Source of the DNA: a virus
Lineage: Duplodnaviria; Heunggongvirae; Uroviricota; Caudoviricetes
Virus record (IMG/VR): IMGVR_UViG_2693429713_000009
Reading direction: 5' to 3' (one strand)
Length of the DNA: 64,000 nucleotides
In this document: positions 30,105 to 37,179 of the stretch, in pieces
Position numbering within the stretch: position 1 is the first letter of the stretch
Layout: every line of letters starts with the position of its first letter
Notes under the pieces: generated by a model
Databases searched by the model: none
The model's input: only the letters and a program-made list of their open reading frames with translations
What the model was told of the DNA's origin: nothing
Program-made: the position numbers and the translations under genes

Positions 30105-31142
30105 TTACCAGAGCTTCGCGGCGTACTGCGTTTGGGGGAATGTGTATCCGTAACGTTCTTCGATTGCTTTGCCGTATTTTTTACGAGCTTCATTCAGTTT
30201 AATGCCGGTCAGGTCGTCTCCAGAGGCCATCATTACGTCTAACAATTCCAGATCCATTTTATCCAGCCTTGCCATTGCTTCACGTGATGTACGTATCTTA
30301 CGCTCAATGATATGGCGAATAGCCGGATCGGCATCCTCCAGCATCTTAGCGGATTTCTGCTTAAGGCTTTCATTGCGAATATCGATGTTCCTTAAGATGT
30401 ACGACTTCGCAACGTAGCTTGGCTGGTGTTTTTCCAGGTCACGAACACGATATAAGTTAAAATCGCCGAGAAGGCTGCAAGGTACCGATTCGACGCCAGA
30501 ATAAATTGTAATGCTCCGGCGTTCACCAACATTATTGACAACGGGGATCGTTGTCTTCGGTAGTCTTGCGAAAACCAATGCGCCATGTGCGCCAACTCTA
30601 AAGCGAGAAAGGGCATTGCTGCCTTCGATGTTTGTTGTCAGCACAACATCTGTATATGCCTCTTTACGCGCCCGGTAGATCTCGCCTTCAGGCTCAGCTT
30701 CAAAGAAGCGCTGTTCTTCTTCAAGAGCACCTACGATTTGAGAAAAAACCCTATTTTTCAGGCTTTTCTTTATGATTTTGTCGTATTTTTTGAGCAATTG
30801 TTCACGTGTAAATGTACGTGTTGTTGTAGCGCTTTGCACAACAACATGCGTGCTTTGATTGGTGTCCTCAATGATGAATGGGATCGGAGAATATACAGAC
30901 TCAACAATGTTCGACGCTTTGCCGTCGGCATCGCGACACATGTCAACGAAGGCTTTCCATTCAGCAAGACATTTTTCAGCTTCTTCTAATATGTTTTGGT
31001 CATGCGTTAATGCAACATGGCGGAATTCCTCGCCAGCATAACTGGTATCATGGAAAACAGAGTTTGCGACCACCAGCTCTTTCCACCGTTCAGCGGTTTG
31101 CAGGAACCGTTTGTACTCTTTCTCGATCGACTTCTTACTCAT
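30105..31142 (-). CDS. C1-like primary repressor (by position)
   Basis: 345 aa, convergent with pacB and divergent from lox-cre as c1 in P1; operator-like motif in its own promoter. Confidence 0.4.
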   Translation of the reverse strand: MSKKSIEKEYKRFLQTAERWKELVVANSVFHDTSYAGEEFRHVALTHDQNILEEAEKCLAEWKAFVDMCRDADGKASNIVESVYSPIPFIIEDTNQSTHVVVQSATTTRTFTREQLLKKYDKIIKKSLKNRVFSQIVGALEEEQRFFEAEPEGEIYRARKEAYTDVVLTTNIEGSNALSRFRVGAHGALVFARLPKTTIPVVNNVGERRSITIYSGVESVPCSLLGDFNLYRVRDLEKHQPSYVAKSYILRNIDIRNESLKQKSAKMLEDADPAIRHIIERKIRTSREAMARLDKMDLELLDVMMASGDDLTGIKLNEARKKYGKAIEERYGYTFPQTQYAAKLW

Positions 31143-31351: not shown

Positions 31352-31385
31352 ATAACTTTAAATAATTGGCATTATTTAAAGTTAG
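31352..31385. promoter_or_regulatory. lox-like recombination site
   Basis: ATAACTTTAAATA-ATTGGCAT-TATTTAAAGTTAG: 13-bp inverted arms (12/13) around 8-bp asymmetric spacer, arm ends ATAACTT as in loxP. Confidence 0.7.
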
Positions 31386-31536
31386 GCTATAATCATGTGT
31401 AGATGAACAGTGTTGACATCACTGAAAATACGTGCCTCGAATCAAAGGCTTGTATTTTGAAAATTAACTTATAGCTACCCTGTCATTTTTATATTTTTCG
31501 CGTAGCGTCATCTGTATATAGAGGTCAAATAGTTTC

Positions 31537-32565
31537 ATGAGTGAATTAATTATCTCTGGCAGTTCCGGTGGTTTTCTGCGCAACATTGGCAAAGAGTACC
31601 AGGAAGCCGCAGAAAACTTTATGCGGTTCATGAATGACCAGGGGGCTTATGCGCCGAATACTCTGCGCGACCTCCGTTTGGTGTTTCATTCCTGGGCGCG
31701 CTGGTGTCACGCTCGCCAGCTTGCCTGGTTTCCGATCTCACCAGAAATGGCCCGCGAGTATTTTCTTCAGCTGCATGATGCCGATCTGGCTTCGACCACC
31801 ATTGATAAGCACTACGCCATGCTGAACATGCTGCTTTCGCATTGTGGCCTTCCGCCACTTTCGGATGATAAAAGTGTTTCTCTGGCTATGCGGCGCATCC
31901 GGCGCGAAGCGGCAACTGAAAAAGGCGAACGAACAGGCCAGGCTATACCGCTGCGGTGGGACGATCTGAAACTGCTCGACGTCCTGTTGTCCAGGTCAGA
32001 ACGGCTGGTGGACCTGCGCAACCGGGCTTTTCTCTTTGTTGCATACAATACGCTGATGCGTATGTCGGAAATATCGCGTATTCGTGTAGGTGATCTGGAC
32101 CAAACAGGTGACACTGTCACGCTACATATTTCACACACGAAGACAATAACGACCGCCGCCGGGCTTGATAAGGTGCTTTCCCGTCGCACTACCGCTGTGC
32201 TGAATGACTGGCTGGATGTTTCCGGGCTTCGCGAACACCCTGACGCAGTGCTGTTCCCGCCGATACACCGTAGCAATAAGGCCAGGATCACGACAACGCC
32301 ACTTACTGCACCTGCAATGGAGAAAATATTCAGCGACGCCTGGGTGTTGCTGAATAAAAGAGATGCTACGCCAAACAAAGGAAGATACCGGACGTGGACC
32401 GGGCATAGTGCACGCGTCGGGGCCGCTATTGATATGGCTGAAAAGCAGGTGTCTATGGTGGAGATCATGCAGGAAGGAACCTGGAAGAAACCGGAAACAC
32501 TTATGCGGTATCTCCGCCGTGGCGGCGTGTCTGTGGGGGCTAATAGCCGCCTGATGGATTCGTAA
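31537..32565 (+). CDS. cre: Cre-like tyrosine recombinase
   Basis: 342 aa; SWARWCHARQLAWFP and C-terminal GHSARVGAA closely parallel P1 Cre. Confidence 0.9.
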   Translation: MSELIISGSSGGFLRNIGKEYQEAAENFMRFMNDQGAYAPNTLRDLRLVFHSWARWCHARQLAWFPISPEMAREYFLQLHDADLASTTIDKHYAMLNMLLSHCGLPPLSDDKSVSLAMRRIRREAATEKGERTGQAIPLRWDDLKLLDVLLSRSERLVDLRNRAFLFVAYNTLMRMSEISRIRVGDLDQTGDTVTLHISHTKTITTAAGLDKVLSRRTTAVLNDWLDVSGLREHPDAVLFPPIHRSNKARITTTPLTAPAMEKIFSDAWVLLNKRDATPNKGRYRTWTGHSARVGAAIDMAEKQVSMVEIMQEGTWKKPETLMRYLRRGGVSVGANSRLMDS

Positions 32566-32983: not shown

Positions 32984-33456
32984 AAACTTATTACCCATCT
33001 CTGAATTGTTACCCATCTTCCTATCCAGAATTATCCGGGAAGCTGTTAGCTCTATTAGCTAAAGCACCTACGGAATGGTTTAAGCCAGTCGTTATCAATC
33101 CACACTTCCTGGATTACGGAACTGTTCGCACTCGTAACGAACTCAAAAACCTACTGGCGCATGGATTCATTCGACACCGTGCCGGGAAAGGCTATCAGTT
33201 AGCGATTGCGCCAGAAGAGGCCGTGCGGCTATTCGCATATCGTGACAGCCAGACAAAAGCTCGGGTAATAGCTCAAATACTTCATAACGGCAGCACCTAT
33301 GCCCGCCAGTTTGGCGGCGACACGTCGCAGTTCTTGCGGGCGGTGCGATCGCTGGAGGAGCAAGGAGTTATTGAAAGTTCCTGTCTTCCTGTTCCTACCG
33401 TTCCACATATCAAACGTCGGGTTTACACCTTCACGCAGAGAGCTAAAAAACAATGA
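32980..33456 (+). CDS. hypothetical protein
   Basis: 158 aa ORF, coupled. Confidence 0.4.
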   Translation: MKTYYPSLNCYPSSYPELSGKLLALLAKAPTEWFKPVVINPHFLDYGTVRTRNELKNLLAHGFIRHRAGKGYQLAIAPEEAVRLFAYRDSQTKARVIAQILHNGSTYARQFGGDTSQFLRAVRSLEEQGVIESSCLPVPTVPHIKRRVYTFTQRAKKQ

Positions 33457-33947
33457 TTTACGTAAAAGTGAAACGCCTACATCCGGCAGCAAAACTTCCA
33501 GCTTATGCCACCTCCGGATCGGCGGCGATGGATTTTGAGGCTGTTGAAATAAAACCATGCGTCGATAGCAATGGTGCAATTTCCTCAAGCTGGTGGGTGT
33601 ACACCGGACTGGCTATGGAGATCCCGCCCGGCTGGTGTCTGAAACTCTATCCGCGCTCCGGATTGGGCTGCAAAAAACATACTCGCCTGGCTAACTGCGT
33701 AGGAATTATCGACTCCGATTATCGCGGTGAAATCATGGCAAAACTGATTACTGATCCAGGCGGGGAAGTCGTTCGTCTCAAGCCTGGAATGGCTGTCATG
33801 CAAGGCATTTTTGAGCGTGTTGAACAAGTCTCACTAGTCGAGGTTGAGGAACTCAACGAAACGGAACGTGGTGCTGGTGGCTTTGGTAGCACATCGGAAG
33901 ACCACTTTGAAATCAAGCGCACACCGCTTCAGTACGCAAAGTTTTAA
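33453..33947 (+). CDS. dut: dUTP diphosphatase
   Basis: 164 aa; GIIDSDYRGE and RGAGGFGST motifs. Confidence 0.8.
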   Translation: MIYVKVKRLHPAAKLPAYATSGSAAMDFEAVEIKPCVDSNGAISSSWWVYTGLAMEIPPGWCLKLYPRSGLGCKKHTRLANCVGIIDSDYRGEIMAKLITDPGGEVVRLKPGMAVMQGIFERVEQVSLVEVEELNETERGAGGFGSTSEDHFEIKRTPLQYAKF

Positions 33948-33961
33948 GCAGAGGAAAGGCT

Positions 33962-34612
33962 ATGAATTACATGGCAACGAAAGAGCTTTTTAAGTTCCTT
34001 CCCAAATACAAAGCTCACAAAAACGTTAGTGCATCGAAAATCAAAAATGTTGTTATTTTCGGAGTAACTGATGCCCCACTTTGGGGCTGCATTGAACTCG
34101 TTGAACCAAAAGGGGCAACAGTTTGTGTTGACGCAATATTTTTACAAAAACACCGACCAAAAACTGGCGGGTATCTGATCGTTTATGAAAACGGTTATCT
34201 GTTCTATGCCCCGGAGAAACCATTTGAGGAATGCTATGGCCTGGTTAACGACGCCTCCGAAAATGGAACCACGGTCATCATTACGGATGACAACGGCGTG
34301 ATGATTAATATTACCGGGAGCGTAACTATTTCTGCTGGTGGTACCACTACCCAGCAAGAGGAAATCGACCTTGAAGCAGCCGACTTTTCTGATGCGCTAA
34401 TGTGGCTGAAAGAAGGAAAAAATGTAGCTCGACGCGAGTGGAAAGGCGAAAAGCAATTCTGCTGGTTAGTTCTCGCTGGGAGCGTCAATTTACACGACAT
34501 TCAGGTTCCTTATGGTGACCATTTCGTATTGAAAGATGCACAAAATATGGACAGCGTTTGGTTGCCGTCTGTTGATGATTTACTGGCTTGTGACTGGTTT
34601 GTAGTGGAGTGA
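33962..34612 (+). CDS. two-domain protein with C-terminal DUF2829 (Tad2-like) domain
   Basis: 216 aa; C-terminal FSDALMWLKEGKNVARREWKGEKQFCWLV...ACDWFVVE. Confidence 0.5.
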   Translation: MNYMATKELFKFLPKYKAHKNVSASKIKNVVIFGVTDAPLWGCIELVEPKGATVCVDAIFLQKHRPKTGGYLIVYENGYLFYAPEKPFEECYGLVNDASENGTTVIITDDNGVMINITGSVTISAGGTTTQQEEIDLEAADFSDALMWLKEGKNVARREWKGEKQFCWLVLAGSVNLHDIQVPYGDHFVLKDAQNMDSVWLPSVDDLLACDWFVVE

Positions 34613-34618
34613 TTTGAC

Positions 34619-35386
34619 ATGGAAAGCACCAAAACAATTCAATACCGCTTGCGTAATGGCCTGCTGGTGGCTGTTAACGCCGACATGTCACTGCCGTTTG
34701 ACACGATTGAACGCACTATCATGACGTATCTCGGCTTTAATGAAGAGCTGAATGAAGAGCATGGCGTAGCTATATGGAGTGATGCAGACAGCGGCGTTCG
34801 TCGTTACATCACCGCCAGGGGCAAAGACTACTCTCTGGAAGAACTGTTTGCCCTTGCGCAGTCTTTCGAATGTGTAGCATTAGACCTGTTTAATGATCCT
34901 GCTATAGCGCAACGACTTATACGCGAGCTTGGGCTATCCGTTACACCAATTATCTTTAAAAATGGCAGCCTGACTGGCACATGGCGCGTAGAACGCATCT
35001 CAAACTACCTTCCATATAACCGACAGTTAAATGGAGTAATCTCCGGCGTTAATCAGCCCGTAGCGTGTGAAAATGTAAACCTGGTTGTCGCTGTTTTGGC
35101 AACCGCATGTCGTGTTATCGGTTTGGCTAAACAGGCATTTATTCATTTCCCAAATGGTGCAGAAGGTAGCGCAGAGATTATCGCGTGTGATTTCGAATTT
35201 ACCTGGATGCTACGCGAATATCTGGACCAAACAGTGTTCCGCGCCGAAGAACTGGATATGTATATCACGTCAACGATTCCTGATGATGTGCGTGCTGAAG
35301 CAATCGCTACAGCAAGGGCCAAATGCCGTGCGGCGATTGCAGAGCAGGCCAAAGAAGAAGTTAAGGAAGTGGCAGATGGCGACTAA
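34619..35386 (+). CDS. hypothetical protein coupled to terminase-like paralog
   Basis: 255 aa; stop overlaps start of downstream gene (ATGGCGACTAA). Confidence 0.4.
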   Translation: MESTKTIQYRLRNGLLVAVNADMSLPFDTIERTIMTYLGFNEELNEEHGVAIWSDADSGVRRYITARGKDYSLEELFALAQSFECVALDLFNDPAIAQRLIRELGLSVTPIIFKNGSLTGTWRVERISNYLPYNRQLNGVISGVNQPVACENVNLVVAVLATACRVIGLAKQAFIHFPNGAEGSAEIIACDFEFTWMLREYLDQTVFRAEELDMYITSTIPDDVRAEAIATARAKCRAAIAEQAKEEVKEVADGD

Positions 35387-36470
35387 GAGCAATATTTATA
35401 AAGATCCGCGCTGGCTGTCGCTGGTGGAGAAATATAAAGACAATTGGGTTCTGGCAGCAAAAGAATTGTTTGATATTGATTTAAGCCACCAGCAACAACA
35501 AATTGTTGAAGCTATACAGCCCAATAATGCAAAAGCTACTGTCACCACTCCGCATGGGATCGGACGACCGCAAGTGCTTGCTGTTATTAGTACCCTTTAT
35601 ACGATTATGTATCCTGATTCCCGGACAGTAATTGTTTATCCAAAATCAAATGCTTGCAAAAAAGGAATTGTTGCATATGTGTGGCAATGTTGGGAGGCAT
35701 TACTGAAAAAACAACCTTTTATCATTGAGTATTTTAAGGTCGGTGATAGCGGTCTGATGTTCAATGAATTTTGGGGAATGTGCTTTTGTAACTACCGCCT
35801 TAACTATGAAGATAGCATTGCAGGTCACTACGCCGACCATCTGTTATTCATTATTGTGGATTCCGCACATATAAGCGATCGGGCATACAGTATTGTGTGG
35901 GCAAGCATGACTAGTGGTGATTCACGCATATTGCTCACTTCAATTCCGTCACCAGAGGAAATAGGATTTTTTTATGATTCTCATCATGGGCGTGCTTTAG
36001 CTGAAGATAATCCGAGTGGTGTCTATAAAGCCATTAAGCTGAGTGCTGAGGATTCACCATTTATTACCCAAGAATATCTTGATCATTTTGCCGAAAGGTA
36101 TGGCGGGCGAAATAGTGATGACTACCGTCGTATGATTCTTGGTGAGTTCCCTGGTATTAGGGAGGCTGTTCTTGAATCAGATATGCCGAAAACAATGCGT
36201 TTTTCAATGCCTGATGGCAGTGAATGGACAATGCCATTACGAGTGATAGCCAAGCATCATGCACAGCACCACGCCAAAAAACATGGCGTTACAACATTAG
36301 AGTGGTTGAAATCGCACACCATTCCACTCTTCACTGCAGATCACAATGCTATCGTTGAGTGGGCAAAAACAATTCCGTGGGGGAATGTCGCTGAATACGC
36401 CCACATGCTAAAACCGCCGAAAGACAGGCAAGAAATTAGCTGGCTGACAGCAGAAAAAATCATTGAGTGA
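35376..36470 (+). CDS. degenerate terminase large subunit paralog (ATPase motifs inactivated, nuclease domain absent)
   Basis: 364 aa; aligns with PacB (DPRW, HQQQQI, FYDSHH, EDSPF) but Walker A is HGIGRPQ and Walker B is IIVDSAH. Confidence 0.6.
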   Translation: MATKSNIYKDPRWLSLVEKYKDNWVLAAKELFDIDLSHQQQQIVEAIQPNNAKATVTTPHGIGRPQVLAVISTLYTIMYPDSRTVIVYPKSNACKKGIVAYVWQCWEALLKKQPFIIEYFKVGDSGLMFNEFWGMCFCNYRLNYEDSIAGHYADHLLFIIVDSAHISDRAYSIVWASMTSGDSRILLTSIPSPEEIGFFYDSHHGRALAEDNPSGVYKAIKLSAEDSPFITQEYLDHFAERYGGRNSDDYRRMILGEFPGIREAVLESDMPKTMRFSMPDGSEWTMPLRVIAKHHAQHHAKKHGVTTLEWLKSHTIPLFTADHNAIVEWAKTIPWGNVAEYAHMLKPPKDRQEISWLTAEKIIE

Positions 36471-36478
36471 TAGTAGAA

Positions 36479-36507
36479 AGCCCGCCTGGTTGAGCGGGCT
36501 TCTTTTC
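36479..36507 (+). terminator. intrinsic terminator
   Basis: AGCCCGC-N8-GCGGGCT then TCTTTTC. Confidence 0.55.
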
Positions 36508-36886
36508 AAATATTGGAACCATATAGTTCACGTAGTTTTTCCGCTACTGAAGATACGGGGATTTCACCAGTTGCAGCCCCCACCGCAAGTTCCACCAGCA
36601 CGGGAGAATCATATACCTGTATACCGTTACGGCGTAGAAATAGCAGCGCACTGTTTAGCGCGGTACGCTTATTGGCATCATTGAATATATGCCCTCTCGC
36701 TGTAGCCACCAGGTAGGTGGCGGAGACTTCGAAAAGGTCGGTGATCTCTTCGTAGGCAACTCTGGCCTGAACTCTCCCGATAATGGCCTCTGCCCTACCC
36801 GGATCTGACATTCCCGGCAGGCCGCCGTAGCGGTTTATATTCGCATCATGAAGCGCAATAAGTTCTTCCGGTGATATATGCCTCAT
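36506..36886 (-). CDS. doc: Doc toxin (Fic family)
   Basis: 126 aa near-identical to P1 Doc as recalled. Confidence 0.9.
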
Positions 36887-37107
36887 TATCGGTTAACCAG
36901 TTCCTTGTTGGTGGAGTCCAGGGTGTCAAACAGGGATGCAAATTCAGCATCCAGCGCCGCTTTTTTGTAGGCTTCGAAAGTAGCCTTGCTGACAATTACT
37001 GCTGGCTCACGGCCTCTGCGGGTGATTTCAACCTCTTCCCCGGCTTCAACATTGTTGAGCACTTCAGAAAGGTTGCCGCGCGCGGTACGGAAGTTAATGG
37101 ATTGCAT
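36886..37107 (-). CDS. phd: Phd antitoxin
   Basis: 73 aa [16 protein letters not shown]..., overlaps doc start. Confidence 0.9.
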
Positions 37108-37179
37108 AAACACCTCGTGTACTCGTTATGTGTACACAATTATAAACCTCACAGGCATAAAGCACCAGACCTTTGCAGC

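Follow-up and report, generated by a model that had tools for sequence, protein, structure and literature searches.

The gene at 33962..34612 (+; ATG start, stop codon included, as given in the ORF list) of the window, i.e., the whole 64,000-nt stretch of DNA that was analysed, codes for a 216-aa protein made of three parts: an N-terminal OB-fold domain (aa 13-97, 33998..34252, +) related to the decoration protein Dec of phage L, a beta-rich stalk or linker (aa 98-137, NDASENGTTVIITDDNGVMINITGSVTISAGGTTTQQEEIDLE, 34253..34372, +), and a C-terminal Tad2-like (DUF2829) domain (aa 138-216, 34373..34609, +) that carries a "K-type" pocket allele. The protein is probably a modular cytoplasmic counter-defence factor, in which the constant part is a minimal Tad2 sponge domain, its central pocket remodelled and its ligand uncertain, and the OB/stalk module is an independent unit habitually coupled to sponges. 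A counter-defence role had been proposed by an earlier, sequence-only reading of this DNA, and it is still the best-supported reading on the grounds of family membership, gene context, and fusion partners. While the presence of Tad2 and its annotation were already known, the purifying selection on the Lys-type pocket allele, the combinatorial shuffling of the modules, and the identity and associations of the Tad2 partner domain are new.

The gene and its genetic context

The start codon is preceded, at a distance of 2 nt, by the Shine-Dalgarno-like AGAGGAAAGG (33950..33959, +; read directly from the sequence), and 15 nt separate the stop codon of the upstream dut gene from the gene start. RefSeq records a protein with the same coordinates in an identical plasmid (WP_052930497.1) under the product name "DUF2829 domain-containing protein", and phrog_872 covers the 216-aa protein over its full length (E 8.7e-46). 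Over the 2 kb surrounding the gene, identity is 100% to the Salmonella Concord plasmid pGMI14-002_2 (NZ_CP028198.1, 92 kb, circular) and 95.7% to phage D6, and 235 plasmid records match this region. On account of these identities, the element can be classed as a D6-like phage-plasmid; the sequence-only reading had rightly spoken of a phage-plasmid.

The operon is composed, in order, of a divergent C1 repressor gene, rox, the Dre recombinase gene, two genes, dut (dUTPase, 33453..33947, +; PF00692 E 5.6e-15, phrog_135), the gene of the 216-aa protein, and two further genes, and it is followed by phd/doc. In the window, the gene is part of a single co-directional string that runs from a promoter-like site overlapping rox to a terminator-like hairpin (36484-36499). 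The two genes that follow that of the 216-aa protein complete a conserved module: the first codes for a 255-aa homologue of P1 isaA (34619..35386, +; phrog_2326), and the second for a 364-aa protein (35376..36470, +; phrog_5902 E 2e-165) with remote similarity to the ATPase of the terminase large subunit (phrog_2 E 2.9e-9). In P1-like phages, the homologue or module is located between ssb and the darA/ddrA/ddrB anti-restriction operon, and the isaA-like 255-aa gene (48% identity) and then the 364-aa gene follow in both the D6-like and the P1-like contexts. This context, accessory and not structural, was counted in favour of the sponge reading.

A rox-like 32-bp palindrome-armed site (TAACTTTAAATAATTGGCATTATTTAAAGTTA, 31353-31384) lies upstream of the Cre-like recombinase gene (31537-32565) and is presumably the rox site of the D6 Dre recombinase; in the D6 record, the "right half of rox site" is annotated at the same relative place. 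The strongest sigma-70-like promoter match of the region (31366-31393, 11/12) overlaps this site, and a weak promoter-like site (34489-34516, TTTACA-16-TATGGT, 9/12) falls within the coding sequence of the Tad2 domain, about 100 nt before the isaA-like gene, which it could drive independently unless it is a chance match. The scanned region holds two promoter-like sites, compared with 9.1 expected in shuffles, and the only strong one is that at rox, upstream of the recombinase, a point that was counted against the sponge reading. The gene divergent from the recombinase (30105-31142, -) is a C1-type repressor, PF27008 being recorded on its homologue in sister contigs; P1-type C1 operators (ATTGCTCTAATAAATTT, with up to 3 mismatches) are found nowhere in the window. 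Immediately downstream of the operon (36506-37113, -) come a toxin-antitoxin pair, phd/doc, and an S24 peptidase of the humD-like kind.

During lysogeny, no prophage gene of Kapi1, a lambdoid E. coli prophage, is expressed more highly than a Tad2-like one (PMC12922286), so there is a precedent for the expression of such a gene from a resident element, which the operon described here might permit.

The C-terminal domain belongs to the Tad2 family

The Pfam profile PF11195 ("Tad2-like") matches aa 141-215 over positions 2-73 of its 73 (E 1.2e-17, 64.6 bits, against a gathering cut-off of 25), far beyond chance, and the predicted model shows the Tad2 fold, an N-terminal helix plus an antiparallel beta-sheet that is superposable on solved Tad2 structures. 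The sequence-only reading had assigned the C-terminal domain to DUF2829/Tad2 from the strings ALMWLKEGKNVARREW and DWFVVE, which do occur at aa 145-160 and 211-216, and had pointed to a Pfam search and a structural comparison as checks; both bear the assignment out. Among the PDB sequences, phmmer retrieves ModTad2 (9eib, 1e-9), another Myroides Tad2 (8v3e), and SPO1 Tad2 (8sme, 9e-6), and, as weak matches, SptTad2 and AcrIIA7/HgmTad2.

The similarity to AcrIIA7, which is one of sequence and fold only, brings in the alternative of an AcrIIA7-type anti-CRISPR acting on Cas9. Type II-A CRISPR-Cas is not known from E. coli or Salmonella, which argues against a target of this kind. Moreover, Li et al. 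could not reproduce the inhibition of Cas9 by HgmTad2/AcrIIA7 either in vitro or in vivo, and an anti-CRISPR function is exceedingly improbable. The plasticity of the Tad2 family towards ligands is documented and was counted in favour of the sponge reading: 3'cADPR, His-ADPR, N7-cADPR, cUMP/cCMP, and cyclic dinucleotides each have a Tad2 homologue that binds them (PMC12393519).

A remodelled pocket under purifying selection

The residues that chiefly hold the ligand of SPO1 Tad2 are W25, W73, N26, and D79, with contributions from T78, S76, and other residues; in HgmTad2, the contacts include W21, N22, and G23 together with the S90/T92/D93 segment, and W21A/N22A cripples binding. The pocket Asn (SPO1 N26, HgmTad2 N22) touches the phosphates and hydroxyls of the ligand. 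In the 216-aa protein, alignment to SPO1 Tad2 places the first pocket loop at W160-K161-G162 (34439..34447, +), where characterised Tad2 proteins have WNG, and the second pocket segment at W200-L-P-S203-V-D205-D206 (34559..34579, +), aligned to SPO1 W73, S76, T78, and D79. Of the four main ligand contacts of SPO1 Tad2, three are retained (W25, W73, and D79 as W160, W200, and D206), and so is S76, as S203; the fourth, the Asn of the WNG loop, is replaced by Lys161, and the position before the pocket Asp, Thr or Gly elsewhere and T78 in SPO1, is Asp205.

The beta2-beta3 insert, of about 16 aa, is the shortest seen (24 aa in SPO1 Tad2, 41 aa in HgmTad2). In HgmTad2 and MoTad2, where it is long, the pocket for cyclic dinucleotides/cUMP is built from this insert; in SPO1 Tad2 it contributes to the dimer interface, where the region of helix alpha2 builds the V-shaped dimer. 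With an insert of only about 16 aa, no cyclic-dinucleotide pocket is expected, and, because the alpha2 region is largely absent from it, the Tad2 tetramer may not form as in the solved structures. Since the pocket is non-canonical, binding of the classical Thoeris signal cannot be assumed either. The Tad2 assignment of the sequence-only reading holds, but the pocket is not canonical, given Lys161, Asp205, and the minimal loop. The replacement of the ligand-contacting Asn and the largely missing alpha2 region were counted against the sponge reading. Li et al. predict an inability to bind gcADPR for only ~1% of Tad2 proteins, and with its Asn replaced the K-type allele is an outlier that might bind no known signal.

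A census of the loop in 103 Tad2-like domains gives the canonical WN[G/A] in 78, WKG in 23, and the divergent WP in 2. All 23 WKG domains of this sample come from P1/D6-like elements, and in every one of them WKG is accompanied by WLPSV[D/A]D and the two motifs lie closest together (spacing of 37 residues, compared with 46 or 54), the Lys being invariant in all 23 K-type clusters. Nei-Gojobori estimates on the DNA sequences of five K-type alleles give, for the Tad2 domain, dS of 0.13-0.41 and omega of 0.05-0.32, and comparison of the window copy with three K-type alleles at dS of about 0.3 narrows omega to 0.05-0.09. The K-type Tad2 domain is under purifying selection and is not decaying. The OB domain, with omega of 0.36-0.86 and dN of 0.2-0.4, evolves more rapidly than the Tad2 domain.

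Mosaic evolution of the gene

Among P1/D6-like elements, the gene is a mosaic of at least five N-domain alleles, two stalk alleles that are interchangeable among sister plasmids (T, TTVIITDDNG..., and V, VSLSIEGHNG...), and three Tad2 alleles (K37, N46, and N54), found in almost all combinations; K-type and canonical N-type Tad2 alleles swap at the same position in otherwise similar genes. This free reassortment fits independent modules under an arms race. In phage D6 (L008:2594-3034), an in-frame deletion of the OB core leaves a 146-aa product, in which the N-terminal 20 residues remain, as do the stalk and a Tad2 domain of the canonical type; the OB core is therefore dispensable for this phage, which was counted against the sponge reading. 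In several plasmids, a deletion at a shared GAGG has given rise to an in-frame dUTPase-Tad2 fusion of 241 aa (P0064). The Tad2 domain is the part that always survives these two rearrangements. In phage RCS47 (L003 5854-7293), the gene is interrupted by IS26. The locus is a hotspot for insertion sequences, and the neighbouring P1 gene is named isaA, "IS1-associated", in the annotation.

It could be argued that a K-type Tad2 domain no longer sequesters immune signals, having either taken on another conserved task (such as the binding of some other metabolite or of a protein, perhaps in concert with the two genes downstream) or become no more than a structural remnant in a shuffled locus. The substitutions of N by K and of T/G by D, the loss of the alpha2-containing insert, a locus that readily undergoes deletion and chimera formation (as in phage D6, in the fusion with dUTPase, in a chimera with a tail fibre, and with the IS26 of RCS47), and the conservation of the three-gene module in D6-like and P1-like contexts are in keeping with such a loss, but they are set against the strong purifying selection seen with the three alleles at dS of about 0.3, the retention of W160, W200, S203, and D206 next to a Lys that can still contact phosphates, and the mutual replacement of K-type and N-type alleles at the same position, as expected of functional alternatives. 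Loss of sequestration is, on this evidence, unlikely, and a sponge with an altered pocket is preferred.

The N-terminal module is an OB-fold related to Dec

The sequence-only reading had left the N-terminal domain as unknown, a description that no longer applies, as it is an OB-fold homologous to phage L Dec, followed by a putatively Dec-like stalk. The predicted model contains a confident beta-barrel over the OB-fold residues (pLDDT about 88), which include the family motifs PKYKAHK and QKHRPKTGGYLIVYENGYLFYAPEKPFEECY, and then 40 low-confidence residues (pLDDT <50 in the monomer model). A profile of the OB domain matches Dec (6E3C) over the whole OB-fold (E 1.1e-4), placing the domain among Dec-type OB-folds, and a single-sequence phmmer search aligns residues 60-126 with Dec 57-122 (MINITGSVTISAG vs TITLTGAVTGSAS), a weak match (E 0.047). 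The Dec spike is unfolded as a monomer and forms a three-stranded structure on capsids, and the low-confidence stalk of the 216-aa protein parallels it in this respect. Two other identities of the OB module were rejected: Lockin, a curved beta protein that forms hexamers and is absent from sequenced model phages, and TadIV-1, a T4 protein.

The OB module has no matching family in Pfam, NCBIfam, or the annotated PHROGs. A profile HMM search of 1.84 billion cluster representatives with the OB domain retrieves 4,843 proteins at E<=1e-3, of which 2,473 at E<=1e-10, mostly of 80-200 aa. The near-invariant residues of this family are a His-Lys pair, KH-P, GGY, Y-D-G-Y, two Ser, and FE-GY, only partly shared with Dec. 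As regards IDLEAADFSDALMWLKEGK, its near-invariance is partly an artefact of the word-based search, and it also appears in matches found via the N-domain alone. The top three matches of the OB profile (P0096-P0098) are giant proteins of 2,182-4,559 aa with 12-28 partial matches each to profile positions ~41-85 (GGY...Y), which may reflect genuine tandem copies of the domain's C-terminal half or an artefact of repeats.

Sponge partners of the OB family

A Pfam scan of the best 146 of the 4,843 OB-family representatives identifies, as fusion partners, Sequestin (PF21825) in 13, Tad2 (PF11195) in 12, Acb4 (PF13876) in 3, and the Acb2/Tad1 hairpin (PF24729) in 2, and the other Pfam matches in this set are two, both marginal. 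All four families are nucleotide-signal sponges. That the OB domain is elsewhere fused almost exclusively to known sponge domains strengthens the earlier suggestion that the fusion partner adds something, which may be a second ligand or target. Moreover, among 80 IMG/VR loci, picked by similarity to stand-alone OB members and scanned with dedicated HMMs, a sponge domain is part of 7 OB genes, and in 5 further loci Tad2 or Sequestin is encoded by a gene of its own no more than 4 kb away; the ORFs neighbouring the OB genes are small (median 130 aa), and 75% of them are on the same strand.

In annotated phages, the contexts of OB genes are mixed and mostly accessory. The OB-linker-Tad2 architecture, here with a canonical GWNG, recurs in gp55 of the Klebsiella phage SopranoGao, whose gene comes third in an early operon next to regulators; in phage Bas106, an OB copy of 95 aa follows the lysis cassette; the copy of the Pseudomonas phage Dolphis is labelled "capsid decoration protein" and is found among small early-type genes; and the homologue of the Ralstonia phage GP4 has the portal gene on one side and the major head gene on the other, with a CsrA-like gene next to it, a position that was counted against the sponge reading.

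The symmetries of a Dec-like trimeric stalk and a Tad2 tetramer are incompatible, which was likewise counted against the sponge reading. A different picture would be a capsid decoration or virion-bound protein like phage L Dec, with the OB legs on the head, a trimeric stalk, and a Tad2-like tip (e.g., an adhesin or a ligand-binding knob outside the cell). However, the gene does not lie in a late head operon, as that of a Dec-type protein would, but sits in the repressor-recombinase-dut (rox-Dre-dut) accessory operon; most OB-family members are small (80-120 aa) and lack a stalk; the partners of the OB domain are cytoplasmic sponge domains and the neighbouring genes are small; the near-invariant family residues (His, Lys, Asp, two Ser) are not those of Dec; phage D6 has lost the OB core and kept the stalk and Tad2 in frame; and a sponge outside the capsid could not meet an intracellular signal. 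A role in the virion is accordingly very unlikely, and the cytoplasmic counter-defence reading is retained. A look for virion proteomes from elements with an intact copy of the gene turned up none; in P1, whose proteome shows no decoration protein, tblastn with the OB domain gives no match to the gene.

According to the Methods of Hadary et al. 2025, homologues of Tad2 with a PF21825 or PDB 6E3C domain were dropped before testing; the OB-Tad2 architecture had thus been noticed elsewhere and left out of experiments on purpose. Tal et al. 2025 discovered Sequestin via its fusion to Tad2 or Acb4 by searching through Pfam, where the OB family is absent. A literature search for Tad2 linked to an OB-fold partner returned no paper.

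Proposed function and implications

In the proposed mechanism, the C-terminal 80 residues would act as a minimal Tad2 sponge, which, by analogy with solved Tad2 proteins, would oligomerise via helix alpha1 and the beta-sheet. The pockets between subunits would bind an ADP-ribose-derived or related nucleotide alarm signal produced by a TIR/Thoeris-type system of the host, so that the signal is soaked up and the effector is never switched on. The change of Asn to Lys and of Thr/Gly to Asp, together with the shortest beta2-beta3 insert, suggests a preference for a ligand other than 3'cADPR, which SPO1 Tad2 binds, and the absence of the second pocket (for cyclic dinucleotides/cUMP) that Tad2 proteins with long inserts have. 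The OB and stalk module, for its part, may bind a second ligand or target, or may serve as a scaffold or multimeriser of the sponge.

A bolder proposal, which we regard as rather doubtful, is that the Dec-like OB is a new and widespread phage counter-defence family, either a fifth signal sponge or a masker of a capsid-derived trigger, overlooked by virtue of being absent from Pfam and filtered from the Tad2 screen; the Lys-type pocket would then be directed to a different immune signal, the 216-aa protein would disarm two pathways, and the shuffled alleles would record an arms race over specificity in Enterobacteriaceae. Because the family comprises thousands of clusters and its only recognisable partners, in the best 146 representatives, are the four known sponge families, the OB domain is a cheap and well-defined candidate for a new counter-defence function, and the system would gain in interest if the family turned out to have such a function by itself.

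D6-like and P1-like phage-plasmids are common in clinically relevant lineages of E. coli, Shigella, and Salmonella, and nearly all D6-like ones carry the gene. If the protein is active, it would shape which hosts are open to such elements despite Thoeris-type immunity, and the natural Asn and Lys pocket alleles in near-identical genes are a ready-made experiment on the evolution of sponge specificity.

Comparison with known systems

The C-terminal domain shares with the Tad2 proteins SPO1 Tad2, ModTad2, and HgmTad2/AcrIIA7 the succession of helix alpha1, antiparallel sheet, and a C-terminal W-x-P-S-x-x-D-x-L-A-x-D-W segment, with 36-40% identity to ModTad2; both pocket Trp, the Ser, and the Asp are kept, and the gene is likewise carried by a mobile element. 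It differs from SPO1 Tad2 and HgmTad2 in the Lys for the pocket Asn, the Asp for Thr/Gly, and the shorter insert, and, whereas those proteins are free-standing (~90 aa), it is here the C-terminal third of a fusion.

With Dec, the protein shares the N-terminal OB-fold with a common PxxGGYL...FExxY core and the subsequent beta-rich segment of ~40 residues, the two proteins being collinear over about 130 residues and the segment being unfolded in the Dec monomer and of low confidence in the monomer model of the 216-aa protein. Conversely, the similarity is weak (profile E 1e-4), the C-terminal domain is an addition, and the gene lies outside structural operons; in the wider OB family, the conserved His, Lys, Asp, and Ser are not present in Dec, and the stalk is missing from most members.

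Fusions between sponges, i.e., Tad2-Acb4 and Tad2-Sequestin, have been validated experimentally (PMC12265669). As in these polyvalent sponges, of which Tad2-Acb4 is found in the Pasteurella phage Pm86, Tad2 is here joined by a linker to a second small phage domain; in the polyvalent sponges both domains are validated, whereas in the 216-aa protein the Tad2 domain alone is in a validated family. Some relatives of the protein combine OB, Tad2, and Sequestin, or OB, an Acb4-like domain, and Sequestin, in a single chain.

Lastly, a survey of phage-plasmids (bioRxiv 10.1101/2025.09.12.675607) lists "Tad2 AcrIIA7 (anti-Thoeris)" in 93% of D6-like and 56% of P1-like elements; it concerns presence only, as distinct from the domain architecture, the alternative pocket alleles, and the module shuffling described here. 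The copies in D6-like and P1-like phage-plasmids occupy the same locus as that of the window, are 59-95% identical to it at the protein level, and are followed by the same isaA-like gene.
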